This document shows positions 1 to 8,162 of a stretch of DNA of 8,162 nucleotides, in pieces; position 1 is the stretch's first letter, and every line of letters begins with the position of its first letter. The notes below the pieces were generated by a model, which worked only from the letters and a program-made list of their open reading frames with translations, was not told where the DNA came from and made no database searches. Origin of the DNA: a virus (taxonomy: Duplodnaviria > Heunggongvirae > Uroviricota > Caudoviricetes); the IMG/VR virus record IMGVR_UViG_2671180770_000010, positions 1 to 8,162 of that record; one strand, given 5' to 3'. The position numbers and the translations under genes were made by a program.

Positions 1-40
1 GTTGACGAAGACGATTCAGATTTTCTTCTTTTGTTGCCAT
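1..40 (-). CDS. 5' end of a lambda gpFI-like DNA-packaging protein gene (partial, runs off the window)
   Basis: Minus-strand ATG at 38-40 with GGAGG at 46-50 upstream. The 13 translated residues MATKEENLNRLRQ resemble the lambda FI N-terminus as I recall it. It lies directly downstream of a capsid gene and terminator, as in lambda E-FI. Only 13 codons are visible. Confidence 0.4.
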   Translation of the reverse strand, partial: MATKEENLNRLRQ

Positions 41-54
41 CTCAGCCTCCTGTG

Positions 55-83
55 AAAAAAGACACGGGGGCATTTCGCCCCCG
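55..83 (-). terminator. Rho-independent terminator after the truncated capsid gene
   Basis: On the minus strand, stem CGGGGGC, loop GAAAT, stem GCCCCCG, then TGTC and a T6 run. It begins 8 nt after the stop at 92-94. Confidence 0.6.
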
Positions 84-91
84 CTCACGGA

Positions 92-883
92 TTATTTCAC
101 CTGCACCACCACAAACTCATCCGGATCCGGCAGCACCATCAGCGGTGCGGACTGCGTCATGGTGAATTCACGGGCCGGATCGCCCACAGTCAGCCAGTGT
201 TTCGGATAACGGGAAGAGGCCACCACACCTTCGGACAACGCCTGCGCATCCTGAATGGCACCATAGCAACGAATGCCCTCTGCTGCCGTATTCCCCAGGA
301 CCAGTGTGCCCACCGGCAGATAACGTTTTTCGGTACCGTCGTCTGCCACATAAGACGTTTTCGCCACCACAATGGCCAGATCACCGTAATACCCTTTGAA
401 AGACACCACCGCTCCCAGGTCTTTCACTGCCGTTTCGAGTTGTGAATTTGAGCCGCGACGGGTATCCAGTTTTTCGCGGAACAGCTTAAAGCCATTCAGC
501 AGACGCCAGACCGTACCGTCCATAATGGCAATATTTACAAGACCGCTGGCCTGATCGCAGTAAAGGTCAATATCATGCGTCGGATCAAACGTATCACGGT
601 CCTGCTCAGACCATTTTTTACCGTCGGCCTGCTCAATGTTATTTCCTTCAGAGCGTCCGAAATCCACCTCGACCGTGTCAAACTGTTCCCCTTCCATGGT
701 GTATTTGCCATACAGCACGGCATTCACCGCCTGCATTTCTTCCACCTGGACAATGGCGTGCTCTTCCTGTTTGAGGTTATCGGTAATGATACGCAGACGA
801 CGGTAGGCCGGGTCGTTCAGCTGAGCCGGATCTTCACCAGGAAGGCGCTCAACCGCCTGCTGGTAATTAAATTCGTGTTTGGG
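92..883 (-). pseudogene. N-terminally truncated lambda gpE-family major capsid protein (roughly residues 80-341 retained)
   Basis: The translation carries gpE-like blocks (VEEMQAV, KLDTRRGSNS.LETAVKDLG, GDPAREFTM.QSAPLM, PDEFV.VQ). Hand translation upstream of the listed start shows the homology continuing to 883 (PKHEFNYQQAVERLPGEDPAQLNDPAYRRLRII). It then ends at an in-frame TAA at 884-886 with no start codon. Candidate internal starts are GTG 743-745 and ATG 734-736. Confidence 0.8.
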
Positions 884-1019
884 TTACATGAGTCAAATAT
901 GAAAGGATGTGAATGATTTGATTACGTTTTAGCTATAGAATTGAAATGGAAAATCCTTGAATGCAATACAACGTGCAATACATGGATGAAAACCATCACT
1001 CATTTAACAAGAGGAATCT

Positions 1020-1925
1020 ATGCGCTCACCCAACAGAATGCATGAACGCTCAACATTTTATAAGTATATGTCGTTGAATACCGCGAAGATTGTTCTTGAT
1101 TCATGCAGCCTTAGATGGAGTTCTCCGGTCCTATTTAATGACCCTTTTGATGTTCCAAGAGAAGTTATGCCTGGTATTAACGAAATTAATATTGGCAAAG
1201 CTTTAGCCCGCAAGTTAATAGCGGAGTTGATTACCCCCAGAGAAGACATACAAAATTTAAATCCTAGAATTAGAACAATGCTAAGTGATTTCCAAAAGTC
1301 ATTTCCTTTAGGCATACCCGCAGGATTAATTGAAAGATTTCAAGAAATGGTAAACATTCCACCAGTTGGGATTGGCGCTCCTGCGGCAATACAAGAAATG
1401 AAAGATGTCTGGCGAGGAATGCTTAATAACAGAAGGATTTTGTGTTTATCTGAGAGCCCTATAATCACTCCTATGTGGAATCACTATGCCGATAAATATA
1501 AAGGTATAGTTATCGAATTTGATTGTGTAGACTTTCTGGATAGCGCTTGGTTAATAGCCAAACCTATGAAATACACAGATGAAATGCCTCTAACTCACAC
1601 TGCTGAAGGGATGGCCGAGTTGCTTTTCATGCCAGACAATAAGTCAATTGAATATATCAATAATGAGATAATATTCATAAAAACAGAAGAATGGGCATAT
1701 GAAAGAGAGTGGAGAATTTCAACCTACGCTAGGCCAAATAGCACTGGTCAATATAGCGACTTAAAATTTCACCCTTTTGAGTTAAAATCTGTAATACTTG
1801 GTCCTCTTTTTGATGCCAGCGAGTTCGATGAAGTCGCATCACTAGTTAAGATGTATCCAAGAGCGAAATTATTTAAAAGTTCATTTGGGAACGACAGAAA
1901 AATATCCATAGTACCACTACCTTAA
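1020..1925 (+). CDS. Hypothetical 301-aa protein, DUF2971-like (tentative family assignment); candidate accessory or anti-phage cargo gene
   Basis: Long ORF with AGAGGA 5 nt before the ATG. It is strongly AT-rich compared with its flanks and is convergent with the neighbouring phage genes. Motifs YKY..L......L......SP.LFNDPFD, LCLSE and W.HYAD.YKG..IEFD match my recollection of DUF2971. Confidence 0.7.
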   Translation: MRSPNRMHERSTFYKYMSLNTAKIVLDSCSLRWSSPVLFNDPFDVPREVMPGINEINIGKALARKLIAELITPREDIQNLNPRIRTMLSDFQKSFPLGIPAGLIERFQEMVNIPPVGIGAPAAIQEMKDVWRGMLNNRRILCLSESPIITPMWNHYADKYKGIVIEFDCVDFLDSAWLIAKPMKYTDEMPLTHTAEGMAELLFMPDNKSIEYINNEIIFIKTEEWAYEREWRISTYARPNSTGQYSDLKFHPFELKSVILGPLFDASEFDEVASLVKMYPRAKLFKSSFGNDRKISIVPLP

Positions 1926-1956
1926 AAGGTCAAATGCTTTTGACAAATAAAATCTA

Positions 1957-1980
1957 TCGCCAGTTTTACTGGCGACTTTT
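1957..1980 (+). terminator. Rho-independent terminator downstream of the 301-aa gene
   Basis: Stem TCGCCAGT (1957-1964), loop TTT, stem ACTGGCGA (1968-1975), then CTTTT. It sits between the two convergent genes. Confidence 0.5.
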
Positions 1981-2031
1981 AAGCAACAAAGAACCACCTA
2001 AGCACTCTTCCTACCTATGGTTTCATTTGTT

Positions 2032-2583
2032 TTAACTTCGCTGATTATCCTTGATATACCTTTCAGCCATATCTGGAATGTTATCTGAGATCTGGTAAGC
2101 TCGAATAAATGCTTTACTGACCTCCATCTTAATGAAGTCCTGATACCGTTTTTCCATGCCAGGAAACTGTCGACAGATCGCAAGTGGAAGACTATCAATG
2201 ATTGCTCCAACTTCCCCAGTTAATTTCGACAAGGCATAAGTCGCAAATGCAGTGTCAATTACCTCACCTGTTTCGCTGGCATTCTTCAGTTCCTGTGCGT
2301 CGGCCTGCGCACGCGTAAGTCGATGGCGTTCATACTCAATAGTCCCTGGCAGGAGATCTGCCTCGCTGGCCTGCCGCAGTTCTTCAACCTCCCGGCGCAG
2401 CTTTTCGTTCTCAATTTCAGCATCCCTTTCGGCATACCATTTTATGACGGCGGCAGAGTCATAAAGCACCTCATTACCCTTGCCACCGCCTCGCAGAACG
2501 GGCATTCCCTGCTCCTGCCAGTTCTGAATGGTACGGATACTCGCACCGAAAATGTCAGCCAGCTGCTTTTTGTTGGCTTCCAT
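2032..2583 (-). CDS. Terminase small subunit, lambda Nu1 family (mosaic, divergent C-terminal part)
   Basis: The first ~103 residues are almost identical to lambda Nu1 as recalled (MEANKKQLADIFGASIRTIQNWQEQGMPVLRGGGKGNEVLYDSAAVIKWYAERDAEIENEKLRREVEELRQASEADL...). The remainder is recognisably related but divergent and AT-rich. A lambda-like cos lies immediately upstream and the length (183 aa) matches Nu1 (181 aa). Confidence 0.9.
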   Translation of the reverse strand: MEANKKQLADIFGASIRTIQNWQEQGMPVLRGGGKGNEVLYDSAAVIKWYAERDAEIENEKLRREVEELRQASEADLLPGTIEYERHRLTRAQADAQELKNASETGEVIDTAFATYALSKLTGEVGAIIDSLPLAICRQFPGMEKRYQDFIKMEVSKAFIRAYQISDNIPDMAERYIKDNQRS

Positions 2584-2610
2584 TGTTCATTCCACGGACA
2601 AAACCAGAGA

Positions 2611-2800
2611 AAGGAAACGACAGAGGCCAAAAAGCCTGTTTTTAGCACCTGTCGTTTCCTTTCTTTTTAGGGGGTGTTTTTAATAAAAACATTAAGTTAC
2701 GGCGAAGAAGAACGGAAACGCCTTAAACAGGAAAATTTTCACAAATAGCGAAAAACTGCGCGCCTGACGCCCCGTAACGTTCTGGATCACCGGAAAGGAC
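2611..2800 (-). other. Lambda-type cos site: conserved cosB (about 2611-2758), variant cosN (2761-2772), cosQ-like flank (about 2779-2800)
   Basis: The minus-strand sequence GTTACG-GGGCGTCAGGCG-CGCAGTTTTTCGCTATTTGTGAAAATTTTCCTGTTTAAGGCGTTTCCGTTCTTCTTCG...GAAAGGAAACGACAGGTGCT...CTGTCGTTTCCTTTC...GTGGAATGAACAATG parallels the lambda cos/Nu1 leader as I recall it. The 12-nt cosN equivalent is GGGCGTCAGGCG against lambda GGGCGGCGACCT. Confidence 0.7.
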
Positions 2801-2828
2801 CCGCCAGCCAGAGCGGGCCCTAATTTCA

Positions 2829-3212
2829 TCAACCAATCAGCTTATAGCGACCATCCCGTGCATTGCGGCGTACACGCTCAATCTTGAGGCATAGCGCCGC
2901 ATCTGGCTTTTTTGGGACAGGTACGCGGCAATATTCAGAAGCGCGAGGAATATTATTTATCCAGTCGATCACTTCACTTAAATACCAGGCCTTACGCCCT
3001 TCCGTAACCTGCACACGCTCCGGGAACTCTCCACTAGCCTCAAGGTTTAGCAGTGTACGACGACTCAGGGTTGTAATTTCCATCACCTGATTCATATCAA
3101 CAAGGCGCTCGCTTAAACACATTTTGTCAGCGATAGCTTTTAATTCCTCTACAGCTGGATTCGGGTACATCATTTCGGCAATTGGCTTAAGGTCATTGTA
3201 ATCATTCTGCAT
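2829..3212 (-). CDS. AlpA/Xis-like HTH DNA-binding protein (127 aa), last gene of the capsid operon and adjacent to cos
   Basis: The C-terminal segment EITTLSRRTLLNLEASGEFPERVQVTEGRKAWYLSEVIDWI fits the AlpA-family MerR-like HTH pattern. The start ATG at 3210-3212 follows AGGGGGA, just after the upstream gene's TAA. Confidence 0.6.
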   Translation of the reverse strand: MQNDYNDLKPIAEMMYPNPAVEELKAIADKMCLSERLVDMNQVMEITTLSRRTLLNLEASGEFPERVQVTEGRKAWYLSEVIDWINNIPRASEYCRVPVPKKPDAALCLKIERVRRNARDGRYKLIG

Positions 3213-3223
3213 TGTATCCCCCT

Positions 3224-3565
3224 TTACACACGAGCCAGCGGCTGAACAGAAATACCTGAGCCAACAAACGCTGCAACCTTTACTGACAGTTCTTTAACAG
3301 ACTCAGGCCAGTTCAGAGCATCAACATTTAAGACACCTGTCTTATAGACCTGAGCCTGTGTTTTTTTCGCGGTGTCGATTTGTACAGCGGAAACATAAAC
3401 CGCTTTACCTACGCTCGAACCATCCCATACTACCAGTGCACCTGTTGCATCTTCCTGCATCAGTGGCGTAAATGCAGGAATTACCCCTTTATTAGCTGAA
3501 AATATCCCCAGCGTAGTCACCAGTGCTTCAGTGCCAGCCATGAGTTCAGTGTAATGAGTAGCCAT
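3224..3565 (-). CDS. Head decoration protein, lambda gpD family
   Basis: 113 aa against lambda D at 110 aa. Shared blocks include TPLMQEDATGALVVWDG (lambda TPLMLDTSSRKLVAWDG), YKTGVLNVDALNWPES (lambda YKSGTFRYEDVLWPEA) and AFVGSGISVQ (lambda AFAGTAISIV). A GGGGGAG ribosome-binding site sits between the upstream stop and the ATG. Confidence 0.8.
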   Translation of the reverse strand: MATHYTELMAGTEALVTTLGIFSANKGVIPAFTPLMQEDATGALVVWDGSSVGKAVYVSAVQIDTAKKTQAQVYKTGVLNVDALNWPESVKELSVKVAAFVGSGISVQPLARV

Positions 3566-3574
3566 TGCTCCCCC

Positions 3575-4615
3575 TTAGCCAATGCGAACGGTAACAAAAC
3601 GATTGATGCGGGCCGGTATTGGCTGTGGTGCTGAATGTGTCTGCACATATTCAATAGCCGGATCACCAGGCACAATATAGTTTTTCGGTGCAAGTTCGGC
3701 TTTAGTCAGCCCCATTCGGATTAGCTCCGGATCCTGAATACCGCCATAGGCGACAATCCCCTGAAGAGCCGTATTGCCAAGCACCATCAAATCAGGATCA
3801 AGGAAATGTTTTTCTGTTCCGTCCTCGTCGGTATAACGCCCGCTGTAAACAACAATCGCAACATCGCCCATATACCCTTTAAAACTCACCGAATCACCAA
3901 GGTCTTTAAGGGCCGTTTCCAGTTCGGAATTAGAACCACGACGGGTATCCAGAGCCTCTTTTATAGCTCTGAATGAACGGTATTTCTTCCATACATTACC
4001 GCCCATAATGATAATATTAGTGACGCCCTCACTAAATTCTGTGTAGCTCTCAATATCATCATTTGGATCAAAAGTTTCTTTATCCTTACCTGACCACTCA
4101 GCACCGCCAGACTGAGTGATGATATTTTGTGGTTTAATATTCCAGTCCAGCTCATAACGTTCAATACCATCGCCCTCAATGATATTTTTCCCCGTTGTGA
4201 TTGCCTGAACAGCAAGCCATTCAATACGTGCACGAATAGCTTTAGCTTGATTTACAATCGCCTGTTTAACTTTAATATTACGCGCCCCAAAAGCATTGTA
4301 TTGCTCAGGTGATACACCAGCAGGGCGCACAGCTAACTTATTTGGATCAATGCTGCTTTTCGGCTTCATATAGCCTGGACGAATTGTTTTTGATTCGTAC
4401 CCTTCGTCACGTGAAACTTTACTACCCACCATAGGAGAACAAAACGCTGCAATTGGGATATTTGGATCGTCGATTGTATCAAGAATAATATCGCGCGATT
4501 CAAACATTACCGAGCGAGTAAAAAACAAACTGGTAAACAACGCATTTAGTTGTTTTTGTACATCTACAGCATTAACCACCTGTACAAGCTGAGTAGGCGA
4601 ATATAAATCAACCAT
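3575..4615 (-). CDS. Major capsid protein, lambda gpE family (complete, 346 aa)
   Basis: gpE-like blocks run the full length (LYSPTQL..., RPGYMKPK, ITQSGGAEWS, DTRRGSNSELETALKDLG, GDPA.E). I moved the start to the ATG at 4613-4615, which has AAGAGG 6 nt upstream. The 404-aa ORF in the track is an upstream over-extension. Confidence 0.85.
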   Translation of the reverse strand: MVDLYSPTQLVQVVNAVDVQKQLNALFTSLFFTRSVMFESRDIILDTIDDPNIPIAAFCSPMVGSKVSRDEGYESKTIRPGYMKPKSSIDPNKLAVRPAGVSPEQYNAFGARNIKVKQAIVNQAKAIRARIEWLAVQAITTGKNIIEGDGIERYELDWNIKPQNIITQSGGAEWSGKDKETFDPNDDIESYTEFSEGVTNIIIMGGNVWKKYRSFRAIKEALDTRRGSNSELETALKDLGDSVSFKGYMGDVAIVVYSGRYTDEDGTEKHFLDPDLMVLGNTALQGIVAYGGIQDPELIRMGLTKAELAPKNYIVPGDPAIEYVQTHSAPQPIPARINRFVTVRIG

Positions 4616-4789
4616 ACGCATCCTCTTTGCATTCATTAAAAATAATTGTGGATATATGCTATCACCGATATTTGTCATGCGAACACATGCAACCGAGTGC
4701 AATGTTGTATAAAGTTTTGGGGTGACAACTTCAGTGCGGACAATTAGTGTTAATATCTTCACTCCCTTTGGTCGGGATTTATGTAGCAT

Positions 4790-4821
4790 GCCGGAAAATT
4801 TATTTTTTCCGGCCTTTTTTT
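4790..4821 (+). terminator. Plus-strand intrinsic-terminator-like hairpin between the SSB and capsid genes
   Basis: Stem GCCGGAAAA (4790-4798), loop TTTATT, stem TTTTCCGGC (4805-4813), then C and a T7 run. The T-run follows the hairpin only on the plus strand, which is antisense to the surrounding genes. Confidence 0.4.
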
Positions 4822-4832
4822 ATTGGCAATAT

Positions 4833-5282
4833 TTAAAACGGGATATCATCTCCCCATTGCTCATTATCTCCCACTGGTGGCTGGCTTCCTTGCTGATCTG
4901 CCTGTTGTTTTGCTCTGTTCAGTGCGTCAGTAGCCTGCCCCTGTTGGCCTTTTTTGCCGCCCGGTCGCACCGATCGCGCACTGATTACGCTGTCTGCGAT
5001 AACCTGCCAGCCCTGCCGCGTTTCGCCGTTCTGTCCAGTCCACTGGCTCATCTGCATGTTACCCGCCACGCTTAGGAGTTCGCCTTTGTGATGCTTTGCC
5101 AGCGCGTCGGCTTGTCTGCCAAACGCCAGGACAGATAACCACATCGTCGCCTGACCGTCATCCGACTGACTGCAGGGCAGTGATACCGCCATACGCGCCA
5201 GCGTCATGGGGGTGCCCTTGCTGGTCTGTTTTGTCTGCGGGTCGTCCACCAACCGCCCGTAAACTGATATTTGCGCCGTCAT
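4833..5282 (-). CDS. Single-stranded DNA-binding protein (SSB family), 149 aa
   Basis: OB-fold-like N-terminal region (ISVYGRLVDDPQ...TKQTSKGTPMT..., WLSVLAFGRQAD), a Gly/Gln-rich linker and the canonical acidic tail DDIPF. Its ATG overlaps the upstream gene's TGA as ATGA at 5279-5282. Confidence 0.8.
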   Translation of the reverse strand: MTAQISVYGRLVDDPQTKQTSKGTPMTLARMAVSLPCSQSDDGQATMWLSVLAFGRQADALAKHHKGELLSVAGNMQMSQWTGQNGETRQGWQVIADSVISARSVRPGGKKGQQGQATDALNRAKQQADQQGSQPPVGDNEQWGDDIPF

Positions 5283-5524
5283 GCTGCCTGCTCTCCGGAC
5301 TTAATATTGATTGTTGTCACTTCCTCCGCTTCAGCAATCTCCCGTTCGGTCAGAGTGGCAAAATTTGCAGCCGCCGTTGTCATGAATGCGCTAATCAGTT
5401 CGGGATGTGCTTTCGCGTATCCTTCCCCGGCGTTGCGGTCGATGATTTTTATCGACACCCTTAACCAGTGTTCCGTCAAATCAAGGGCGTGCGATTGTGA
5501 TTTTTTTGTGTGCTTCGCTGTCAT
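5279..5524 (-). CDS. Hypothetical 81-aa protein, translationally coupled to the SSB gene
   Basis: ORF sits directly downstream of the iteron region and overlaps the SSB start by ATGA. I do not recognise a family. Confidence 0.5.
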   Translation of the reverse strand: MTAKHTKKSQSHALDLTEHWLRVSIKIIDRNAGEGYAKAHPELISAFMTTAAANFATLTEREIAEAEEVTTINIKSGEQAA

Positions 5525-5570
5525 AGGCTTTATCTCACAGCAGTAAATTAAAATTTTTGCGTTTTAACCC

Positions 5571-5798
5571 TTCACCTGTTCACCTTTTGATATTTTCTCT
5601 TTTAATTCATAATGTTAATGGGTGAACAGTTTCACAAAAACTATTCACCAACTGTTCACCACTGTTCACCCTTGAAGCTCAATAAACAATCAAAAAGGTG
5701 AACAGTGAATAGTTTGGTGAACAGTTCATAAATAACTGTTCACCCTATAATATACTGATATAAAAGATATTTATGACAGGGTGAACAGTGGTGAACAG
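5571..5798. repeat. Iteron array (P4 ori/crr-type TGTTCACC repeats); putative replication origin
   Basis: About ten copies of CTGTTCACC or its complement GGTGAACAG in both orientations (5576-5584, 5621-5629, 5652-5660, 5662-5670, 5697-5705, 5716-5724, 5736-5744, 5780-5788, 5790-5798, plus degenerate copies). An AT-rich stretch lies at 5745-5779. The array is adjacent to the primase gene. Confidence 0.75.
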
Positions 5799-5811
5799 TT
5801 ATTCCATAAGT

Positions 5812-7632
5812 TTAATTTTTGCTATCGTCATTAGTGACCGATACACATGATGGCATCCAGTCTTCTGATTCCTCCGTCAGTGTCACGTTTGAACGCAAAC
5901 CGTGCTTCGTTTTCCGTTTCATATACTCCCTGCCATATTCCGCCATTGCCCCCGGCATATCTTTACCGAAGCGCGTCAGTGTTACAGGTTTACCAAACCC
6001 ATGTGCCCTCATATAAGCCAGATAGGCATGATAGAGATACCTGCGTGGGCTGAATGGCACAATTTCAGCATTACCCACTAACAGGCCATCACACATTACC
6101 GATGCCATGAGATAGCCGCAGAAGTCCACCAGCGAATCCCCCTCTCGCTTTATCGCCAGTGCTTCTTCAGATTTCTGCTGCTCATATAACAGGCGTCTGG
6201 CTTCGTCCTGATCAGCAAACCGTGTAAGCAGATGACGAATCACTACCGCCAGCTCACCTTCTATTTTTTCCGCCAGCATCGAATCGCGTTCGTTCTCCGG
6301 TACAACTTCCGAAAAATTGAATATCACCCGACGACGTGAGATCCCCCCGCTGCGGTCACTGAATGACATGGCGTTATTGTTAACCACCAGCACTACTGCC
6401 GGAATACGCGTTGAATAGGGGGCTTTGTGTTTCGGGTCAATTGCCACCTTGTCACCGCCTGTAATGGCCTTAATCCCTGCCCCATCACCAGCGTAGCGGG
6501 TCATATCTGGCATGATAATCAGCGAAAAGCCAACCACTAACGCACGTTCCCTTGCATCTTCCAGCGCCTTCATGCTTGCTGATACTGTATTAGCCTTACC
6601 CGCCAGCATGGTGCAAATCTCCGCCATCACGCTTTTACCACTTCCCCCCGGCCCTGTTACCTCAATGAATAACTGCCAGTCGTACCGGTTCGCCAGCACC
6701 ATGAATAATGCCGCCAGTACGCGATCTGCCTTGCGGTCATTCTCAGCCACCGAACGGCGCAACCACTTCCAGAAATTCGGCGCATGTGTTGCCAGCGTTT
6801 CCCCCTCTGCTGGTGGGCTGAAAGGTAATTCACTGGCAATTAACAACCAGTCGTTTTTGTTATGCTCCCGAAAATTACCTGTTCTGGTATCAAATACCCC
6901 GTTACTGAATCCAATCAGGTTACGGGCTGTATTCCCCATTACAGGCAAACTTAACTTCATGGTATCTACCGCCGATTTAATGGCGTTCTGCGAATAGCTG
7001 ATCTCCGCATCAATGAAAATCTGCGCCATAGCACGCTGTAACTCTTTATCCTGAACCGGCTCCCATACAACGCCGTTGTAATGATGAACGGTGTCAGAGT
7101 CGGCATTGATTGCCAGTTCGCCGCCGTAATGTGCCAGGAGAACTTCACCGCGCTGGCTGGCCCCCATCTGATTCAACGCCAAAGATGAAGCACGCTCGTC
7201 ATTTTTGCGCTCTGCCTTCTTCACTGGCAGTTCAATCACCAGACTTTCCCCATGCTCCGCTTCAGCTTTTAGGCCGACAAGGCGCGGAGTCCAGTCTTCA
7301 GGCTCTCGATCAACAAAGCTACGGTAACAACGTGCTTCCTTTACGCCTGCAATAGCAAGTAATGTCGCAACCTTCGTCAGACTTTTCTCTGCAATCTTTC
7401 CGGCACGATAAACACGCACATAATGACGGCCTTCATCGATAATTTGCATATCATCCAGGTTTTCCAGTTGTTCCGTACCCAGAATTACTGGTGGTGTATC
7501 ATCTGCTGCAATATGCTTACCTGCCCATTCATTCCATTCTTTTGCATGGCTCCAGGCATCACTGCCAGCAAAAATGATGACTTCCGTCATTTTGTCGCGC
7601 GGTTGGTATTTTAAGTTCGGAGCACGTTTCAT
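5812..7632 (-). CDS. P4 alpha-like replication protein (phage/plasmid primase-helicase family; pri-rep)
   Basis: 606-aa ORF with the Walker A motif GPGGSGKS (EVTGPGGSGKSV) in its central region. Its size, architecture and the adjacent TGTTCACC iterons are typical of P4-family and PICI primase/helicases. The ATG overlaps the upstream ORF stop as ATGA at 7629-7632. Confidence 0.85.
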   Translation of the reverse strand: MKRAPNLKYQPRDKMTEVIIFAGSDAWSHAKEWNEWAGKHIAADDTPPVILGTEQLENLDDMQIIDEGRHYVRVYRAGKIAEKSLTKVATLLAIAGVKEARCYRSFVDREPEDWTPRLVGLKAEAEHGESLVIELPVKKAERKNDERASSLALNQMGASQRGEVLLAHYGGELAINADSDTVHHYNGVVWEPVQDKELQRAMAQIFIDAEISYSQNAIKSAVDTMKLSLPVMGNTARNLIGFSNGVFDTRTGNFREHNKNDWLLIASELPFSPPAEGETLATHAPNFWKWLRRSVAENDRKADRVLAALFMVLANRYDWQLFIEVTGPGGSGKSVMAEICTMLAGKANTVSASMKALEDARERALVVGFSLIIMPDMTRYAGDGAGIKAITGGDKVAIDPKHKAPYSTRIPAVVLVVNNNAMSFSDRSGGISRRRVIFNFSEVVPENERDSMLAEKIEGELAVVIRHLLTRFADQDEARRLLYEQQKSEEALAIKREGDSLVDFCGYLMASVMCDGLLVGNAEIVPFSPRRYLYHAYLAYMRAHGFGKPVTLTRFGKDMPGAMAEYGREYMKRKTKHGLRSNVTLTEESEDWMPSCVSVTNDDSKN

Positions 7633-7916
7633 TTGTTACCTCCGGCAACTAACATTGCCCGAATTTTGCGGATATAGCCTGCGGCACGCCTCTGATTATC
7701 TGTCTTGCAATTTTTTACCAGAATGAAATCTCTTTCGAACTGCTGACGCGGCATAACACATTCAAAATCATAACCATCACGCAAATAAGAGACACGACGA
7801 TCATCAACCGAAATAATCTTTACCCGATAGCCATAGCTGTCTTTGAAAATATCCCCAAGGCTGATTTTTGAATGAGTTTGACCGCTGGCAATAAAGCCAG
7901 AAAATTTATTTTTCAT
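7629..7916 (-). CDS. Hypothetical 95-aa protein, translationally coupled to the primase gene
   Basis: ORF has GGAG 8 nt upstream of the ATG at 7914-7916 and an ATGA stop/start overlap with the primase gene. No family recognised. Confidence 0.5.
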   Translation of the reverse strand: MKNKFSGFIASGQTHSKISLGDIFKDSYGYRVKIISVDDRRVSYLRDGYDFECVMPRQQFERDFILVKNCKTDNQRRAAGYIRKIRAMLVAGGNK

Positions 7917-8162
7917 TTTTTATTCTCCGGTATAGCTCTGATCGTGTATTTTTATAGCTTCATCCAGCTCTTTGATGACAGGATCAAGTAACGTAATTAA
8001 CGCTCCAGCTAAATTAGCATCCCGTTCATCGTGTTCCGCATTTGTTGTCCCATCAAGCCAGGTTGGGCTTTGTTGAATAAATAAGATTTCGTGCGAACGA
8101 CCCTGTAGCTGGCTGGATTTTCAGGCAATACGCACGCTTTCTGGCATCCCAGCCTTTGTCAT

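Follow-up and report, generated by a model that had tools for sequence, protein, structure and literature searches.

A DUF2971 gene in an exchangeable cargo slot of a helper-embedded phage satellite is a candidate abortive-infection factor

The closest described system is Aristaios, a DUF2971 protein of 316 amino acids that is encoded on the Lactococcus plasmid pUCCL641 and has been validated as a single-gene abortive-infection (Abi) system (Grafakou et al., NAR 2024, PMC11381338). Aristaios blocks phage transcription and the production of phage proteins, and its sequence data are under BioProject PRJNA1086404 (PMC11381338). DUF2971 has been assigned to the ADP-ribosyltransferases (ARTs) independently, by structure comparison and by profile and structure comparison (PMC11381338, PMC12522546). 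Candidate defense genes are also collected in the PDC families, whose nomination rested on finding members inside loci for BREX, DISARM, or type I RM (Payne et al., bioRxiv 10.1101/2024.01.29.577857). Phage satellites have defense hotspots as well, such as the one that lies near cos in P4 (Rousset et al. 2022) and the accessory regions of PICIs (as cited in PMC11364771). Finally, among 491 helper-embedded PICIs (HE-PICIs), some form the capE site group (Tommasini, Mageeney and Williams); 11capE has a 10-bp identity block, and a cos-like segment is shared in it (PMC10111431). The zones that were described for HE-PICIs are Integration, Bro, Replication, and Late, and that description has no slot for defense cargo at the attR end (PMC10111431).

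We analyzed 8,162 nucleotides of viral DNA (positions 1 to 8,162 of IMG/VR record IMGVR_UViG_2671180770_000010; "the window"). An earlier note, made from the letters alone, had singled out a DUF2971-like gene as a candidate anti-phage or Abi factor. Our results support that candidacy: the protein matches the defense-candidate family PDC-S31, the gene sits in a defense hotspot, and its family includes Aristaios. A role for this protein in anti-phage defense is probable. The overall proposal, in which the gene is accessory defense cargo of a capE HE-PICI and encodes an ART-like Abi factor, asks for more, and we hold it with somewhat less confidence but still favor it. The features of the window are listed in Table 1.

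Table 1. Features of the window, by position
Feature	Position	Strand	Basis
Start of the prophage FI gene	1 to ~50		Similarity to the lambdoid E/FI region
Helper prophage major capsid gene E, 3' fragment, without the first ~80 codons	92..885	-	Pfam Phage_cap_E, profile positions 119-329
Satellite attR core, TGTTTGGGTT	876..885		One-mismatch version of the L001 core; satellite sequence from 886
AT-rich satellite end and region upstream of the cargo gene (GC 0.32)	886..1019	+	Weak candidate promoter, ribosome-binding site
DUF2971 / PDC-S31 gene, 301 aa	1020..1925	+	ORF list, Pfam and PADLOC matches, homologs, model
GC-rich hairpin between the convergent DUF2971 gene and terS	1957..1975		Pattern scan and folding energy
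Satellite terS (lambda Nu1 family)	2032..2583	-	Pfam Phage_Nu1, E = 8e-82
5' part of terS and upstream region, probable satellite cos region	2246..2804		~92% identity to helper nohD/cos
Satellite late zone	2829..4789	-	HTH, decoration D, capsid E
AlpA-like HTH, 127 aa, late zone	2829..3212	-	Profile matches
Head decoration protein D homolog	3224..3565	-	Profile matches
Satellite's own major capsid protein E homolog	3575..~4615	-	Profile matches; mechanical ORF to 4789
Satellite replication zone	4833..7916	-	SSB, phrog_1231, ori, primase, DUF4222
SSB	4833..5282	-	Profile matches
phrog_1231 protein	5279..5524	-	Profile matches
Putative ori, iteron-rich	5575-5804		Repeats
D5-type primase/helicase	5812..7632	-	Profile matches
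DUF4222 protein	7629..7916	-	Profile matches

The DUF2971 gene is, as the earlier note had described it, a single well-formed gene with a ribosome-binding site. The ORF is intact, encodes 301 amino acids, and begins with an ATG at a spacing of 4 nt from the sequence AAGAGGA (1009-1015). The RefSeq/PGAP product has just 252 amino acids and begins at M50, so that 49 N-terminal residues are omitted (window 1020-1166; L001 14908-15054). In the genomes that carry this shorter annotation, the 301-codon ORF and the ribosome-binding site are both intact. Homologs from three other genera keep the N-terminal pattern MRSPNR..H.R..F(Y/F)KY, which favors the start at 1020, and the invariant or nearly invariant residues K15, Y16, S34, and D41 all lie upstream of M50. 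Because the omitted N-terminus carries several invariant residues and two strands of the predicted core, we consider the longer start to be correct. For the same reason, cloning the gene from its RefSeq annotation would probably yield an inactive protein.

The gene stands apart from its neighbors in composition and orientation, which agrees with what had been noted from the sequence. Its GC content is 0.377 (GC3 0.33) and that of the spacer upstream is 0.32, versus 0.467 for the rest of the island, 0.489 for terS, and 0.532 for the prophage capsid fragment. It is also the sole substantial gene on the + strand. The other nine (for DUF4222, primase, the phrog_1231 protein, SSB, capsid, decoration protein, AlpA-like HTH, and terS, and the capsid fragment at the left) are all on the - strand. 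Upstream of the gene, a default promoter scan found no consensus sigma-70 promoter; the best candidate from a relaxed scan is weak (-35 ATGATT at 913-918, a 17-nt spacer, and -10 TAGAAT at 936-941). Downstream, the gene had been credited with a terminator of its own. The strong hairpin is real (-17.6 kcal/mol, z = -3.4, and none of 200 shuffled sequences was as stable), but it lies between two convergent genes, the pattern scan assigns it to the - strand, and just four U residues follow when it is read on the + strand. We therefore view it as a likely bidirectional terminator that is shared with terS. No Rfam family matched within the window. From attR, 134 bp upstream of the DUF2971 gene, to the convergent terS, 106 bp downstream of it, there is no further ORF.

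The surroundings had been described as a phage-packaging context. They do not form a phage packaging module, however. The neighbors belong to a phage satellite that is embedded in an E. coli prophage, namely a capE-type HE-PICI inserted in the prophage's capsid gene. Copies that are ~96% identical, in complete genomes of E. coli, make up an island of ~10.5 kb with the order int, AlpA, a variable gene, an Icd-like gene, DUF4222, primase, SSB, capsid, decoration, HTH, terS, and a variable slot. The int/AlpA end is outside the window but is present in all of the near-identical islands. This is the gene order of a PICI, with int-AlpA, a Bro zone, a primase/SSB zone, and a late zone with capsid. 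The island interrupts the major capsid gene of a lambdoid prophage that is complete apart from this. Beside the island lie nohD, terL, portal, the S49 protease, and D in one direction, and FI and the tail genes in the other. Within the window, positions 1-883 are 88-98% identical to lambdoid phages across the 3' two-thirds of E and the start of FI, and RefSeq names the equivalent capsid fragment "major capsid protein, missing N-terminus."

The ends of the island show how it integrated in this late gene of the prophage. At locus L001, a 10-bp core (TGCTTGGGTT) is found at both ends (14764 and 25334), and joining the E fragments at the core, in silico, restores a gpE ORF of 341 amino acids. The window has a version of this core with one mismatch (TGTTTGGGTT), followed by the same island-end sequence as in L001. 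Since the satellite begins at 886, the start codon of the DUF2971 gene is 134 bp inside the right end, and the gene reads inward. The earlier note had also suggested a moron or defense cargo gene. Cargo of a satellite fits, but a moron of a complete phage is ruled out by the PICI organization of the island and by its att sites. We also rejected a cf-PICI or a P4-like satellite: portal, protease, sid, and psu are absent, and the layout is that of a capE HE-PICI.

Next to the cargo gene, the 5' part of terS and ~220 bp upstream of it are ~92% identical to the helper's nohD/cos region (L001 31185-31743, L003 29619-30176), and so, to judge from sequence similarity, the satellite appears to have captured a cos and small-terminase module from its helper. 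In some islands with an identical DUF2971 gene, terS has an internal stop codon and is a pseudogene (L004 10013-10564, L005 10013-10564), so the satellite's terS seems to be dispensable. The late zone has an AlpA-family HTH of its own, flanked by the decoration gene and terS, in addition to the AlpA beside int; it may activate the late genes. For the satellite's capsid gene, the mechanical ORF (3575-4789) would encode 404 amino acids. Because the RefSeq homologs have 346 and the Pfam match begins at residue 70, translation probably starts near 4615. The gap downstream of the primase gene (5575-5804) has a GC content of ~0.33 and contains at least 10 copies of a 10-mer, GGTGAACAGT/ACTGTTCACC, in both orientations. 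These repeats resemble iterons, and the satellite's origin of replication is probably here.

Comparing the window to sister islands with other cargo identified the slot that the DUF2971 gene occupies. On the left, similarity ends at ~896-919; on the right, it returns at 2546-2732. These limits define a variable block of ~1.65 kb (~900-2545) that includes terS. We looked at this slot in five other E. coli capE islands. It contains an AbiJ-like/Abi_C protein in L002, an Mrr_cat restriction endonuclease in L003, an NsnA/PD-T4-2-like pair (GmrSD_N and HEPN) in L018, a DUF3892 protein with proteins of no recognized family in L019, and a 311-aa protein of no recognized family in L020. Because the sister islands carry different defense genes or AT-rich genes at this position, the attR-proximal slot is a defense hotspot. 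As in the P4 and PICI hotspots, a variable AT-rich slot at the end of the element, beside the packaging signal, holds alternative defense systems while the core is conserved; unlike those elements, this satellite is an HE-PICI inside a prophage capsid gene.

Near int, the islands also vary between AlpA and the Icd-like gene, and so each island has two cargo positions. This second slot contains PD-T7-1 (E = 1e-124), putAbiC, or a 305-aa protein of no recognized family (L003 21012-22094; L002 21270-21953; L018 11321-12004; L001 22771-23688). The occupants of both slots are all AT-rich, with GC contents of 0.31-0.42.

The DUF2971 gene is rare: we found it in 33 of the 5,426 complete genomes of E. 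coli, each time on the chromosome. The copies are always at least 99.7% identical, while the flanking island is ~96% identical and has at least two different replication modules. A near-identical gene between diverged flanks, with differing modules, is the signature of a recently exchanged cassette. Orthologs occupy the same slot of capE islands in Enterobacter sichuanensis (88% identity) and Klebsiella aerogenes (71% identity), with dN/dS of 0.14 and 0.07, respectively. Such low ratios across three genera, in the same slot, imply that the gene is maintained by purifying selection, and the 301-codon ORF is unbroken in every copy that we examined.

The earlier note had suggested DUF2971 from a motif match, and the family assignment turned out to be right. 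Pfam DUF2971 (PF11185) matches residues 152-233 across the entire profile (positions 1-89 of 89), with a score of 40 bits (E = 1e-9), where the gathering threshold is 22. All 59 homologs that we aligned match this family as well. The protein also matches PADLOC's PDC-S31 directly and near full length (PDLC04990, E = 2.5e-32, residues 9-289), as do four other PDC-S31 models. PDC-S31 is a single-gene family whose defense function is that of a candidate, and all 117 of 117 divergent relatives (22-59% identical to the query) match it too. The hotspot of a satellite, where this copy lies, is a different setting from the BREX, DISARM, or type I RM loci that led to the nomination of the PDC families. 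No NCBIfam model matched the protein, and a literature search for "PDC-S31" found no paper. The family is large: a profile search of 1.84 billion representatives found 20,529 clusters at E ≤ 1e-3, of which 656 remain at a cutoff of E ≤ 1e-30, and there are 479 full-length homologs of ~300 amino acids. Across the 117 representatives, K15, D41, W153, Y156, K221, E230, R232, and G261 are invariant, and Y16, S34, P36, N40, P42, D44, E228, and W231 are at least 90% conserved.

How similar is the protein to Aristaios? Both are stand-alone DUF2971 proteins of ~300 amino acids with an ART-like predicted fold, a comparison that extends to domain, length, and fold only. Aristaios comes from another phylum, is plasmid-borne, and has an Abi phenotype that was determined experimentally, while the protein in the window comes from a phage satellite and its function is predicted from the sequence and a model. 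The 89-column Pfam domain that they share is weak evidence that they might have the same function across phyla. No Lactococcus record was among the matches listed from a tblastn search of plasmids.

To see if homologs elsewhere are associated with defense, as the earlier note had suggested checking, we sampled nine neighborhoods. Two were in the HE-PICI slot. One was in a lambdoid prophage, in the variable region from P to Q, with genes for an HD protein and a SIR2 protein of 951 amino acids beside it; two were in a small islet beside proA, one of these adjoining HEPN_AbiV and a YjhX toxin; and one was beside HipA_C. The remaining three were among apparent housekeeping genes, in neither a mobile-element nor a defense context. 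Thus the association with defense beyond the satellite locus is real but not universal. No partner gene was conserved across the sampled neighborhoods, which supports a single-gene system. In Enterobacter and a relative (L006-L009 and L022), homologs with 56-62% identity lie in an islet at proA/proB-phoE-crl-frsA, once with HEPN_AbiV and the YjhX toxin and once with an integrase fragment. This islet may be a chromosomal hotspot for defense islets.

We predicted the structure with AlphaFold2, using the alignment of 59 sequences, and obtained a confident model (pLDDT 95.3, pTM 0.87). It is a compact, fully ordered, and cytoplasmic-looking globule with no signal-like segment at the N-terminus, and it has a beta core that a four-helix insert of 85 residues (55-137) interrupts, followed by a small C-terminal beta domain (240-301). 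Comparing the model to known structures was less informative. Foldseek found nothing significant in the PDB (the best match was DarT, with E = 0.14 and TM 0.30-0.40) and nothing informative among the viral structures in BFVD, and phmmer and profile hmmsearch against PDB sequences gave spurious helical matches only. HMMs for DarT, AbiG, and Tpt1 had no match either, whether from Pfam at E ≤ 10 (59 members) or from PADLOC at E ≤ 1 (117 members). Because of these results, we consider the support for an ART-like fold to be moderate, not strong.

The conserved residues can be placed on the model. In ARTs, the active site has a His or Arg on strand 1, a Tyr or Ser-x-Ser on strand 2, and a catalytic Glu or ExE on strand 5, which line the NAD+ cleft. 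In the model, K15 is on strand 12-17, S34 is on strand 30-34, and E228-x-E230 opens strand 230-236; Y156 is invariant. K15, S34, Y156, and E228-x-E230 would fit a three-motif ART site, with a putative NAD+ pocket whose placement we infer from the positions of the strands. A Lys on strand 1 (K15) is atypical for ARTs, which usually have His or Arg there.

DarT, the best Foldseek match, is the toxin of DarTG and is a thymidine ADP-ribosyltransferase that acts on single-stranded DNA. The two proteins differ: the protein in the window has no HMM match to DarT, and it has the 85-residue helical insert and the C-terminal domain in addition. No gene for a DarG macrodomain antitoxin adjoins the DUF2971 gene, and the window contains no macrodomain. 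A toxin-antitoxin system of the DarTG type is thereby ruled out.

Most likely, then, the protein is a single-gene Abi factor with an ART-like fold. How it might act can be sketched, with each step a proposal. In the lysogen, small amounts of the protein would be produced and held in an inactive state. An ART-like toxin without an antitoxin would have to be autoinhibited, by a mechanism that is purely hypothetical; the helical insert or the C-terminal beta domain might be responsible. Infection by a phage other than the helper would activate the protein, and the ART-like core (K15, S34, Y156, and E228-x-E230) would then modify, by means of NAD+, either a nucleic acid or some part of the machinery for gene expression. 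With the phage's transcription and protein synthesis shut off, the infection would abort, which would protect the host, the helper prophage, and the satellite together. The parts of this scheme are not equally credible. NAD+-dependent chemistry of the ART type is nearly an even call, falling a little short of one, and a target that is nucleic acid rather than protein is doubtful. More speculatively still, the enterobacterial DUF2971 proteins of ~300 amino acids could be a separate class of antitoxin-free, self-guarded ARTs that act on nucleic acids and use Lys/Ser/ExE instead of His-Tyr-Glu; the insert or the C-terminal domain would sense a phage cue, and the copy at the attR/cos end of the satellite would protect host, helper, and satellite without being triggered by its own lambdoid helper. 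As a whole, this conjecture is unlikely to be right.

We considered other explanations for the gene. An ART-like fold might support a different chemistry from DarT's, such as that of an NADase or of an RNA 2'-phosphotransferase or end-modifying enzyme like Tpt1/KptA, with defense by NAD+ depletion or RNA modification. We think this is rather unlikely. None of the 59 family members that we scanned has a match to the Pfam domain PTS_2-RNA. Tpt1 has a catalytic tetrad of Arg-His-Arg-Arg, which the invariant set of K15, D41, Y156, K221, E230, and R232 does not resemble; the invariant set contains instead an ExE-type glutamate, which is typical of transferases. Another alternative is that the gene benefits the satellite instead of the host, either as an addiction or stabilization toxin or by interfering with the helper, for instance by slowing the helper's expression until the satellite has excised and replicated. 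The satellite does lie inside its helper, with its timing tied to the helper's late expression (PMC10111431), the gene adjoins terS/cos in the late zone, and toxins are common among proteins with the ART fold. But the slot is exchangeable with classical host-defense genes (AbiJ-like, Mrr, and PD-T4-2), and because unrelated genes fill it in sister islands with the same core, DUF2971 is not a core life-cycle function. The gene is also transcribed against all of the satellite's operons and has a foreign composition, its homologs occur outside satellites too (in prophage moron regions and in chromosomal islets), and no ORF for a cognate antitoxin lies beside it. We consider a role in the satellite's own life cycle to be improbable.

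It is more improbable that the gene has no current function, as a neutral hitchhiker or a decaying remnant. Its rarity among E. coli genomes, the lack of a clear promoter, and the truncated 252-aa product in RefSeq might suggest decay, but the intact ORF in all examined copies and the low dN/dS over three genera in the same slot argue otherwise, and the N-terminus that the shorter annotation leaves out is strongly conserved. Least probable of all is a secreted or injected effector or a virulence factor, as was proposed for part of DUF2971 in Legionella; of the DUF2971 proteins, ~18% are predicted effectors, lpg1268 among them (PMC12522546). The compact, ordered model, without a signal-like N-terminus, looks cytoplasmic; commensal, environmental, and clinical E. 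coli alike carry the satellite; and the neighbors and the replacements in the slot are genes for defense, not secretion. Overall, these explanations are less likely than the one that we favor, mainly because the slot is exchangeable with classical defense genes and because the ORF is conserved.

The gene family, its status as a defense candidate, its ART prediction, HE-PICIs as elements, and the notion that satellites have defense hotspots had all been published. What we add is that the DUF2971 family occupies, at the attR/cos end of HE-PICIs, a defined cargo slot whose contents are exchangeable. We also correct the start codon of the gene and define the set of constrained residues in the subfamily of ~300 amino acids, with a Lys instead of a His on strand 1. 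The DUF2971 family has about 20,000 representative clusters, and Aristaios is the sole member that has been tested experimentally. Because the E. coli copy is short and stand-alone, has a confident model, and comes from a tractable host, it would be a convenient system for studying how an ART-like protein without an antitoxin is restrained and what it targets. The locus raises the question of how a defense cargo spares the helper, and it extends the picture of satellites as carriers of defense to satellites that live inside their helper.
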